Below, piece after piece: positions 3,071-4,660 of a DNA stretch of 5,285 nucleotides. The notes beneath the pieces are model-generated. The model did not search any database. It was not told where the DNA came from and worked only from the letters and a program-made list of their open reading frames with translations. Source of the DNA: a virus (Duplodnaviria; Heunggongvirae; Uroviricota; Caudoviricetes); IMG/VR virus record IMGVR_UViG_2695420480_000001; one strand, given 5' to 3'. The position numbers were made by a program, and so were the translations under genes. The first letter of the stretch is position 1; every line of letters begins with the position of its first letter.

Positions 3071-3113
3071 AAAAAGGGCGGCAGAGCAGCCACGGAGTAA
3101 AACTGATACCGCC
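3071..3113 (-). terminator. DicF 3' stem-loop / intrinsic terminator (GGCGG..CAGU / GCUG..CCGCC then U5)
   Basis: On the minus strand, GGCGG (revcomp of 3109-3113) pairs with CCGCC (revcomp of 3077-3081), with an inner CAGU/GCUG helix, followed by UUUUU (revcomp of 3071-3075). dicB lies downstream, so read-through must occur. Confidence 0.5.
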
Positions 3114-3128
3114 AAACGTCACCAGAAA
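3074..3128 (-). ncRNA. dicF: DicF small regulatory RNA (ftsZ-targeting sRNA of the dicB operon)
   Basis: Revcomp of 3071..3128 reads UUUCUGGUGACGUUUGGCGGUAUCAGUUUUACUCCGUGGCUGCUCUGCCGCCCUUUUU. This matches the roughly 53-nt DicF sequence as I remember it, apart from one position (GUGGCUG here, GUGACUG recalled). It ends in a GC-rich interrupted stem plus a U-run, and lies directly upstream of dicB on the same strand as in Qin. The exact ends are not determinable from sequence. Confidence 0.8.
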
Positions 3129-3153
3129 ATTGATAACAGAGGGCGTTGCAGCG

Positions 3154-3190
3154 GGGTTGTCACTTAAGCGTATGGTCAACCTGACAACCC
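3154..3190 (-). repeat. Perfect 9-bp inverted repeat GGGTTGTCA-N19-TGACAACCC, 26-62 nt upstream of the DicF 5' end
   Basis: 3154-3162 gggttgtca and 3182-3190 tgacaaccc are exact reverse complements. In a minus-strand transcript this would form a 9-bp stem with a 19-nt loop just 5' of DicF. Confidence 0.35.
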
Positions 3191-3627
3191 GATGTCCTCA
3201 ACGGGGAAGGAATAACCCCGCCATACTTACCGCCGCGCCATTTCGCGGAGTGCCACAACCGGAAGCGCACGGTCGACGAAAATTTAACGACAGGTTATCT
3301 ATGAACCAGCTACCTCGCCGTGCGCTTTCGCGTTATGGTCTGACTTTTCATGGAAATATCCTTTCAGTAAACTGTCAGTGCCGGATGCTCACCCGTGTCC
3401 GGCGCACGCACTCCACCTCACCCGTGGAGAACTCCTTAATTACCAACCTTAGCTTCGTTGGTTAGCTATTAACGCGGGTAAAAGAGGATGACCCACGTAA
3501 TCAGGTTAATTTTCTTTATGAGCCATCGGAAAGACCATATTGTCATCACGCCTCTGTCCGGGTTGACGAAAAAGAGCGTCAGGTCCGCTGTAAAATCTGC
3601 GGTGCAGTTGTGGAGCCATTTGACTGG

Positions 3628-3786
3628 ATGCTCTCTGTGGCGAAAAGAGAAACCAGACTGGCAGATGATGTAAGGCTCTTGCGCCAGGAGGAACGGGAAA
3701 GGCGGAGAAATATAGAAAAGCTAATTCAGATTGAGCGTAACGCGAAAGCGCGGATACGCAGGGCGGCAAAATCAAGAACTGAATAA
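3628..3786 (+). CDS. Hypothetical small basic/charged helical protein (52 aa from ATG 3628, or 58 aa from GTG 3610); start uncertain, possibly a 5'-truncated remnant
   Basis: The frame is open from 3466 to TAA at 3784-3786. The C-terminal part MLSVAKRETRLADDVRLLRQEERERRRNIEKLIQIERNAKARIRRAAKSRTE looks protein-like (charged, coiled-coil-like). Upstream in the same frame is a Cys/His cluster (PYCHHASV...RCKICG) but no canonical start. The only RBS-like site for ATG 3628 is GGAG 12 nt upstream (weak). It is below the track's length cutoff, and the overlapping track ORF 3488..3673 is in another frame. Confidence 0.3.
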   Translation: MLSVAKRETRLADDVRLLRQEERERRRNIEKLIQIERNAKARIRRAAKSRTE

Positions 3787-3820
3787 TTAAATTTAGCACT
3801 GTTAAAAATTTAATCCTTAA
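3786..3820 (+). promoter_or_regulatory. AT-rich candidate promoter region for the 3866..4311 cassette (weak -35/-10-like hexamers, e.g. tttaat at 3809-3814)
   Basis: An AT-rich stretch (aataattaaatttagcactgttaaaaatttaatcc) sits directly upstream of a strongly RBS-equipped gene. No convincing sigma70 consensus was found, so this is a low-confidence placement. Confidence 0.2.
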
Positions 3821-3865
3821 CCGGAGGGATTTCTGCACCCTCAGAACATCAGGAGGCCGTTCGAA

Positions 3866-4147
3866 ATGGCGGTACTGCGTAATCAGCCTGCGCTGTACGC
3901 GTTTACGTCAGAAATTAATGCGATTAGCGCAACCATTATCGGTCAGCTGGATACGAACTTTAAAACTGGTCGTCGTGCGGCGTTACGTGAGATCGAGGAT
4001 GTGAAACACGATACGCGTGAAGCGGAAGATGTGCTGGATGTGGCGGTGGCCATTGCGGAGGCAGACGGCGAAATTGAGCCGGAAGAGCGCAAGGTGCTGG
4101 AAGAGATTGCCGGTGTTCTGGGTCTTCGTCTGGAGAATTACCTGTGA
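3866..4147 (+). CDS. TerB-like (tellurite-resistance TerB / DjlA-N-type fold) small acidic protein, 93 aa
   Basis: ATG 3866 with AGGAGG at 3851-3856 (9-nt spacer); 93 codons to TGA 4145-4147; strong E. coli codon bias (ctg, gcg, cgt). Product: MAVLRNQPALYAFTSEINAISATIIGQLDTNFKTGRRAALREIEDVKHDTREAEDVLDVAVAIAEADGEIEPEERKVLEEIAGVLGLRLENYL. The C-terminal motif AEADGEIEPEERKVLEEIAGVLGL resembles the TerB-family signature (ADG..E..L..LGL) as I remember it; no search was run. Confidence 0.8.
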   Translation: MAVLRNQPALYAFTSEINAISATIIGQLDTNFKTGRRAALREIEDVKHDTREAEDVLDVAVAIAEADGEIEPEERKVLEEIAGVLGLRLENYL

Positions 4148-4311: not shown

Positions 4312-4512
4312 TTTTTTTGTTTGCTGTTTATTAAAAACACTTCTGCATGGTGAATCCCCCTGTGCGGTGGGGCAATCAGCAAGAAGGAATATGGGGTAAT
4401 CGCGGATTCAGGTGCTGATACTGAATTCACCGGGAGGCACCCGGCACCATGCTTTGCCACAAAAGTGTTATTTCTGTTTTTCTCAAACTATCATCGTTAT
4501 CCCTTTATTTTC

Positions 4513-4539
4513 GGCTGCGCATGGCGCGGCCTTTTTTTT
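4513..4539 (+). terminator. Rho-independent terminator (8-bp stem GGCUGCGC/GCGCGGCC with one U-G pair, then T8)
   Basis: ggctgcgc atg gcgcggcc followed by tttttttt (4532-4539). The T-run is only on the plus strand, so it is unidirectional. Confidence 0.65.
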
Positions 4540-4634
4540 ACGACCAGCCACTGGCAGATGGTCATCCTGTGATTTGATTCCGCTTCCGGCTTTTTAACTC
4601 TGTTCCTCTAGCCAGGTAACACAGTGTTATGACA

Positions 4635-4660
4635 GCCCGCCGATTCAGGCGGGCTTTTTT
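4635..4660 (+). terminator. Rho-independent terminator (7-bp GC stem GCCCGCC/GGCGGGC, 6-nt loop, T6)
   Basis: gcccgcc gattca ggcgggc tttttt, ending 11 nt before the stf ATG at 4672. Confidence 0.7.

Follow-up and report, generated by a model that had tools for sequence, protein, structure and literature searches.

Results and Discussion

An Open Reading Frame without a Start Codon

On the plus strand of the 5285-bp stretch of DNA analysed here (the window), one reading frame running from position 3130 to 3786 translates into 111 codons, the stop codon TAG (3463–3465) and a second, 106-codon stretch of protein-like character, which opens LLTRVKEDDPRNQVNFLYEPSERPYCHHASVRVDEKERQVRCKICGAVVEPFDWMLSVAKRE, closes SRTE and ends at TAA (3784–3786). 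This second part of the frame (3466–3786) includes PYCHHASVRVDEKERQVRCKICGAVVEPFDW and a charged tail. Its translation and the list of open reading frames (ORFs) agreed with the description given in an earlier note on this DNA, namely a protein-like frame with a Cys/His cluster in which the first ATG, GTG or TTG codon is GTG 3610, followed by ATG 3628. The same list placed the ORF starting at ATG 3488 in a different frame, as had also been stated. The question raised by the locus is how so gene-like a frame came to be without a start codon, and whether anything is still made from it. The window is the whole of contig CXZE01000052.1 of the Escherichia coli draft assembly GCA_001277415.1, and in the annotation of that assembly no gene was called between 2902 and 3865. 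The features discussed below are collected in Table 1.

Table 1. Features of the 5285-bp window relevant to the start-less frame and its surroundings.
Feature	Coordinates	Strand	Evidence or remarks
RecE/YdfE-type exonuclease gene (YdfE_N, YdfE_C and Rv2179c-like 3′-5′ exonuclease domains), running off the left contig end	1–2431	−	
ydfD	2525–2716	−	
dicB	2713–2901	−	
DicF sRNA gene	3076–3127	−	Rfam RF00039, 75 bits against a gathering score of 48, E 8.3e-16, full length
Untranslated dicBF-operon spacer between ydfC and dicF; its end (3469–3480) is made up of the final 3 codons and the stop of ydfC	3128–3480	−	DNA identity to relatives
Chance open frame antisense to the spacer, outside the nin gene	3130–3465	+	No coding signature, no family or PHROG similarity
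Deletion joint J1, 4-nt microhomology GGTA common to both parents	3477–3480	.	Alignment of the window with both parents
5′-truncated remnant, codons 17–118 and TAA, of the 118-aa nin-region protein (PHROG 1621)	3478–3786	+	Profile match, 100% DNA identity to the intact alleles L008 and L010
Out-of-frame ORF inside the nin gene	3488–3673	+	ORF list; no PHROG match
Cys/His cluster C38, H40, C54, C57 (CxH...CxxC), small zinc ribbon	3541–3600	+	Invariant in 24- and 56-sequence alignments
Residual internal ORFs from GTG 3610 (58 aa) and ATG 3628 (52 aa), without the zinc ribbon	3610–3786	+	ORF list
Codons for the long charged C-terminal helix (residues 63–117), including the near-invariant NIEKLIQIERNAKARIRR	3616–3780	+	AF2 model, conservation
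93-aa TerB-domain ORF	3866–4147		phrog_632, positions 53–143 of 143
Joint J2, GGTA microhomology, nin-region spacer to about codon 54 of tciA	~3872–3877		
STnc100 sRNA, directly downstream of tciB	4316–4488	+	Rfam, 100.8 bits against a gathering score of 47
Joint J3, TA microhomology, region after tciB/STnc100 to the lom-stf spacer	~4609–4610		

Relationship of the Frame to PHROG 1621

The translated frame matched the PHROG 1621 profile with an E-value of 8.8e-48 (162 bits), over profile positions 16–120 of 134 only. This match, together with 100% DNA identity to intact alleles, excludes the suggestion that the frame is a coincidence in GC-rich DNA. The homologue search that had been proposed was run and showed that intact longer homologues exist, with a product of 118 aa that starts MEIKPEDELSNIVLFP-VKEDDPRNQ... 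and a gene in which AGGAG stands a few bases before the ATG. Intact calls of 118 or 137 aa were found in ArgO145, 640R1 and E. coli FDAARGOS_1248, the 137-aa version being a GTG extension made by some annotators. The part surviving in the window is the 3′ 102 codons of the 118-aa gene. Residues 17–118 of the remnant were identical to those of the protein of the intact alleles L008 and L010, and in a 24-sequence alignment their identity to database homologues did not exceed 99%.

Compared with intact PHROG 1621 proteins of the WP_158137789.1 type from nin regions, the remnant shares, besides the profile match, all four zinc ligands and the C-terminal helix with the motif NIEKLIQIERNAKARIRR, but it lacks the start codon, the Shine-Dalgarno sequence and the N-terminal 16 residues with the motif M..E.EL.N.V.FP, the AGGAG-N5-ATG and codons 1–16 being replaced by DNA of the dicBF spacer. 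It also no longer lies behind the replication genes of the rightward early operon (the family position is the early or nin region, from the replication genes to Q), its upstream neighbour here being antisense DicF. Judged by its sequence, the frame is thus a remnant of a PHROG 1621 member and not a functional member. No promoter-like site was found on the plus strand between 2994 and 3866, and the remnant would have neither useful transcription nor translation. Taken as a whole, the frame is very probably what is left, dead and 5′-truncated, of a nin-region gene of lambdoid phages that lost its beginning to a recent microhomology deletion in a decaying E. coli prophage.

A Deletion Joint inside the Frame

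Megablast of positions 3100–3870 against phage genomes gave two separate match blocks, one (3100–3480) corresponding to the surroundings of dicF/ydfC in phages including Tritos and 606R7, and the other (3477–3870) to a gene labelled "hypothetical protein" in further lambdoid phages (640R1, ArgO145); both halves were contiguous in none of the phage records of this search. The two blocks overlap in the tetranucleotide GGTA of the joint J1. The left parent reads ...AACGCGGGTA/TGTAATC (Tritos, 606R7 and K-12; the slash marks the crossover), the right parent ...TTATTTCCGGTA/AAAGAGG (L008, L010, L001, L003 and L005), and the window ...AACGCGGGTA/AAAGAGG. The right side of J1 corresponds to codon 16/17 of the nin gene and the left side to a point three codons before the stop of ydfC, which lies on the opposite strand. 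The four in-frame codons at 3466–3477, as well as the TAG at 3463–3465, belong to the spacer side.

Two Logan assemblies independent of each other, DRR567785 and DRR567778, carried this joint at 100% identity. Two more (ERR13952733 and SRR28811060) contained the intact gene, with the 3′ end of a DUF977 gene in front of it, and from 3477 rightward their contigs were 100% identical to the window over 1809 and 972 nt, respectively. All four were retrieved by exact-sequence look-up of the neighbouring 93-aa protein, the only search in which J1 was found. J1 was found in none of 5426 complete E. coli genomes, and searches of 185,579 species-representative genomes, IMG/VR and JGI metagenomes gave 0 matches.

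Its absence from the complete E. coli genomes would be expected if J1 had been made by a short-read assembler and did not exist in the genome, and the window, a short (5285 bp) draft contig of repeated prophage modules, is of the kind in which such a chimera could arise. The overlap at J1 is, however, 4 nt, far below any assembler k-mer, runs DRR567785 and DRR567778 each yielded an identical J1 in separate assemblies, and two samples are on record for the NCBI contig. As an overlap of this length rules out an assembler artefact and the joint was obtained more than once, J1 is regarded as real, and a chimeric origin as extremely unlikely.

J1 has in all likelihood arisen by an illegitimate, microhomology-mediated deletion. 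In this event the point near the ydfC stop was joined through GGTA to codon 16/17 of the oppositely oriented nin gene, and the ribosome-binding site, the ATG and the first 16 codons of the latter, with the near-invariant E.EL.N.V.FP motif, were lost. No substitution was found between the remnant and the intact allele, so the deletion is recent. The remaining codons are still open, and the frame gene-like, only on account of this recency; the open frame thus reflects youth and not selection. We infer a deletion within one prophage, the alternative being illegitimate recombination between two co-resident prophages, both read from a contig of only 5.3 kb.

The DNA Upstream of the Joint

Up to base 3480 the left flank was 95.9% identical to phage Tritos and 97.6% identical to E. 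coli FDAARGOS_1248, and the last 70 nt before J1 differed from Tritos in one base. The ydfC-like coding sequence of Tritos ends at the equivalent of 3469; the ydfC stop codon accordingly occupies 3469–3471 on the minus strand, and 3469–3480 is the sole remnant of ydfC in the window. DicF scored above the Rfam gathering score and is contiguous with this 3′ end. Given the RF00039 match on the minus strand, the left block is the long untranslated region between ydfC and dicF, seen from its antisense side.

The earlier note had considered a 219-codon gene (3130–3786) inactivated by the TAG at 3463 and by loss of its start, a reading suggested by the fact that both stretches lie in one frame with a single stop between them. 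That they share a frame is a one-in-three chance. The homology boundary lies at 3477 and not at the TAG, which is on the spacer side and hence no nonsense mutation of the nin gene, and intact homologues start 48 nt upstream of this boundary with unrelated sequence. The upstream frame (3130–3465) bears no coding signature, the variable sites numbering 55, 60 and 60 by codon position, and stops or indels disrupt it in 44 of the 74 distinct relatives. It gave no PHROG match and showed no similarity to any of the 281 family proteins collected, and it is antisense to a documented untranslated region of the dicBF operon (PMC5069750). The likelihood of a longer gene is therefore negligible. The proposal of a decayed gene was right as to the outcome and wrong as to the route, since the remnant was very probably produced by the deletion at J1 and not by nonsense mutation and start loss.

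Genes Probably Removed by the Deletion

Among relatives possessing both flanks, the distance from one breakpoint to the other is 2.65–6.3 kb, most often 3.7–3.9 kb, a range that leaves out FDAARGOS_1248 (1.75 kb), which carries a deletion of its own. The interval in 606R7 contains ydfC-like, ydfB-like, repressor, cro, cII, O and LygF/DUF977 genes. By comparison with such relatives, several kilobases would have been lost from the prophage, including most of ydfC, ydfB, ydfA, a DicA/CI-type repressor gene, cro/dicC, a cII/YdaT gene, replication genes and DUF977.

The dicBF operon consists of ydfA-ydfB-ydfC, an untranslated region with dicF, and then dicB-ydfD, and its promoter, upstream of ydfA, has DicA and DicC as its repressors (PMC5069750). 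In both K-12 and 606R7 the part upstream of the J1 position comprises ydfA, ydfB, ydfC, the promoter of the operon and the regulators DicA/DicC. Because the deletion removed this upstream part, DicF and dicB, the division inhibitors of the operon, have probably been left promoterless. DicF, dicB and ydfD, all on the minus strand, are themselves intact in the window.

Internal and Out-of-Frame Start Codons

The earlier note had also allowed for a short gene starting at GTG 3610 or ATG 3628. These two codons turned out to be internal Val and Met codons of the family, internal in every full-length homologue, and the full-length members measured 114–132 aa instead of beginning at the equivalent of ATG 3628. 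The only 52-aa entries seen to begin there, P0145 and P0154, are representatives of 50%-identity clusters and deviate from the family consensus at several C-terminal positions. In a collection of 15 billion proteins, the 58-aa sequence was called on one contig and the exact 52-aa sequence was absent.

A helix-only peptide might nevertheless still be made from one of these codons. The ORF is open, GGAG (3612–3615) stands 12 nt before ATG 3628, and no part of the family is better conserved, or modelled with more confidence, than the helix. Such a peptide might, for instance, pair in a dominant-negative manner with intact paralogues from co-resident lambdoid prophages, and paralogues could co-exist, as E. 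coli genomes matching 3300–3900 have a median of two matching places. Apart from the internal position of the starts and the divergence of the two 52-aa entries, gene calling in the source assembly produced nothing at 3610–3786, no promoter-like site lies upstream, where the DNA is the antisense strand of an operon, and the absence of any substitution since the deletion gives no sign of selection either way. We consider a residual small gene very unlikely, and the ORFs at 3610 and 3628 are probably not genes. Weak translation of the 52-aa helix-only peptide from read-through transcripts is formally conceivable from the sequence.

The "GAGG ATG" in front of the out-of-frame ORF at 3488 consists of the codons GAG GAT of the real frame, and the same bases are found inside the intact alleles. 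A frameshift or recoding event linking ATG 3488 to the Cys/His frame was rejected, as these bases are the codons GAG GAT GAC in intact alleles, with the real start upstream.

The feature is an ordinary pseudogene of an already understood kind, and the prophage skeleton around it has at least three deletion joints. It would be better annotated as a pseudogene, or left blank, than as a small ORF. Being one more gene fragment in a decaying prophage, it is of little importance by itself; with a recent microhomology deletion and a 100%-identical intact allele to compare, it offers a clean worked example of how an intact-looking frame without a start arises.

A Recurrent Breakpoint at the 3′ End of ydfC

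The left breakpoint of J1, TA/TG, located three codons before the ydfC stop (window positions 3479–3480), is common to the base to three independent deletions. In E. coli FDAARGOS_1248 (L005 5977) the same left breakpoint is joined into the interior of ydaT, with TA as microhomology, and in E. coli EC06 and one metagenome contig (L139 4002; L141) its partner, attached from the opposite side, is the rspB flank of the chromosome, the microhomology being TATG. The 28-nt left flank continues with the ancestral ydfC 3′ end in 122 of its 126 occurrences (loci L001–L130), and searches of IMG/VR and JGI metagenomes brought no additional variant joints to light. L130 (JAIIUG010000151.1, 438–465) has an exact 28-nt match to the ydfC–dicF spacer of the E. 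coli prophage on a 2.5-kb contig of a metagenome-assembled genome labelled Collinsella sp.; this contig is probably a binning contaminant.

The TA/TG site may be a preferred site of breakage or illegitimate joining in Qin/PPompW-type prophages, in which case the truncation would be no random accident. We regard this as rather unlikely: a hot spot is possible and is not established by three events and a pattern recognised post hoc. If it were true, a site-preferring nuclease, topoisomerase or transposase activity would be shaping prophage decay, and the recurrence of the breakpoint in unrelated strains may merit a look at population scale. With regard to an integrase acting at pseudo-att sites, neither partner of the joints in FDAARGOS_1248 and in the window is a prophage end, an observation that concerns the partner sequences only. 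A hairpin or cruciform was also considered as the cause and rejected, the site having no notable inverted repeat and a DNA fold z-score of −0.28.

Truncated remnants are likewise present in the Qin prophage of K-12 and the PPompW-type prophage of FDAARGOS_1248 (ydfX, the ydfE exonuclease fragment, intQ and a partial ydaT), these being partial coding sequences left by internal deletions in defective lambdoid prophages. The process and the neighbourhood are the same as in the window, whereas the gene truncated is a different one.

The Intact Family

PHROG 1621 is a family of unknown function, and its close homologues, all "hypothetical", were found in Escherichia, Shigella, Salmonella, Klebsiella, Kluyvera, Serratia, Yersinia, Erwinia and Pluralibacter. 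In the N-terminal motif, which is acidic, M1 and F15 were invariant and E6, E8, N11 and P16 were present in at least 90% of 56 members; for L9 the figure of at least 90% applies to the 24-sequence alignment. In both the 24- and the 56-sequence alignments the four ligands C38, H40, C54 and C57 were invariant and the C-terminal NIEKLIQIERNAKARIRR nearly so. The remnant, even if it were translated, would be without the N-terminal motif.

The AF2 model (mean pLDDT 72.9) consists of a disordered N-terminus, a small beta ribbon with strands at residues 43–46 and 51–54, and a single helix of about 55 residues, basic and acidic in character (residues 63–117, pLDDT 83–92). A profile search against 1.8 billion representatives returned 1644 clusters at E ≤ 1e-3, which have mainly the ribbon-plus-helix core in common, those listed best being mostly of about 100–190 aa; ten sampled longer clusters (140–241 aa) contained no Pfam domain above threshold. 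For the intact family itself, Pfam gave no match above threshold, NCBIfam and PADLOC gave none, and a sequence search of the PDB returned nothing significant. The Pfam zinc ribbon of TFIIB (PF08271, Zn_Ribbon_TF) reached 21.5–21.9 bits (E 1.3e-4) against a gathering cut-off of 29, and the best Foldseek match in the PDB, 1pft (E 0.43), reflects a generic zinc-ribbon resemblance. The protein has the same two-knuckle ribbon with four metal ligands as zinc ribbons of the TFIIB and ribosomal S27e types (PF08271, PF01667), but its first knuckle is CxH and not CxxC; the likeness is one of fold only and implies no shared function.

In prophages of Serratia, Yersinia and Klebsiella the family gene is part of the nin region, where none to two genes separate it from the downstream Q antiterminator gene, and in E. 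coli PPompW-type prophages it follows DUF977. Relatives are situated after DUF977, RusA, NinH or YbcO and before the Antiterm gene. Going by architecture and position only, we would guess that the intact protein is a small accessory factor of the early phase, with a metal-stabilised zinc ribbon and probably a coiled coil, and that it binds a partner, be it nucleic acid, a host protein or a phage protein. Some homologues (P0002, P0122, P0030 and P0125) carry foreign N-terminal extensions, such as Ea22-like fusions measuring 202–256 aa; in lambdoid phages the 5′ end of the family gene seems often to undergo recombination or fusion.

The Surrounding Prophage Skeleton

The window begins, on the minus strand, with the RecE/YdfE-type exonuclease gene, ydfD, dicB and DicF, which are followed by J1, the remnant, J2, a TerB/TciA fragment, tciB, an STnc100-type RNA, J3 and a side tail-fibre gene. 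J2 yields an in-frame ORF of 93 aa with a TerB domain, in which the ATG is provided fortuitously by the nin-region spacer, behind AGGAGG; this product is named "TciA/TerB-like protein" in the source annotation. The two sides of J3 are about 26 kb apart in phage JLK-2012, so that the lysis and morphogenesis genes are gone. J2 and J3 are older than J1, because the contigs with the intact allele share both of them. All three joints of the window cross over directly after TA. Terminator-like hairpins follow STnc100 at 4513–4531 and 4634–4655, and in other phages the tciB/STnc100 block is located downstream of Q, in the moron position.
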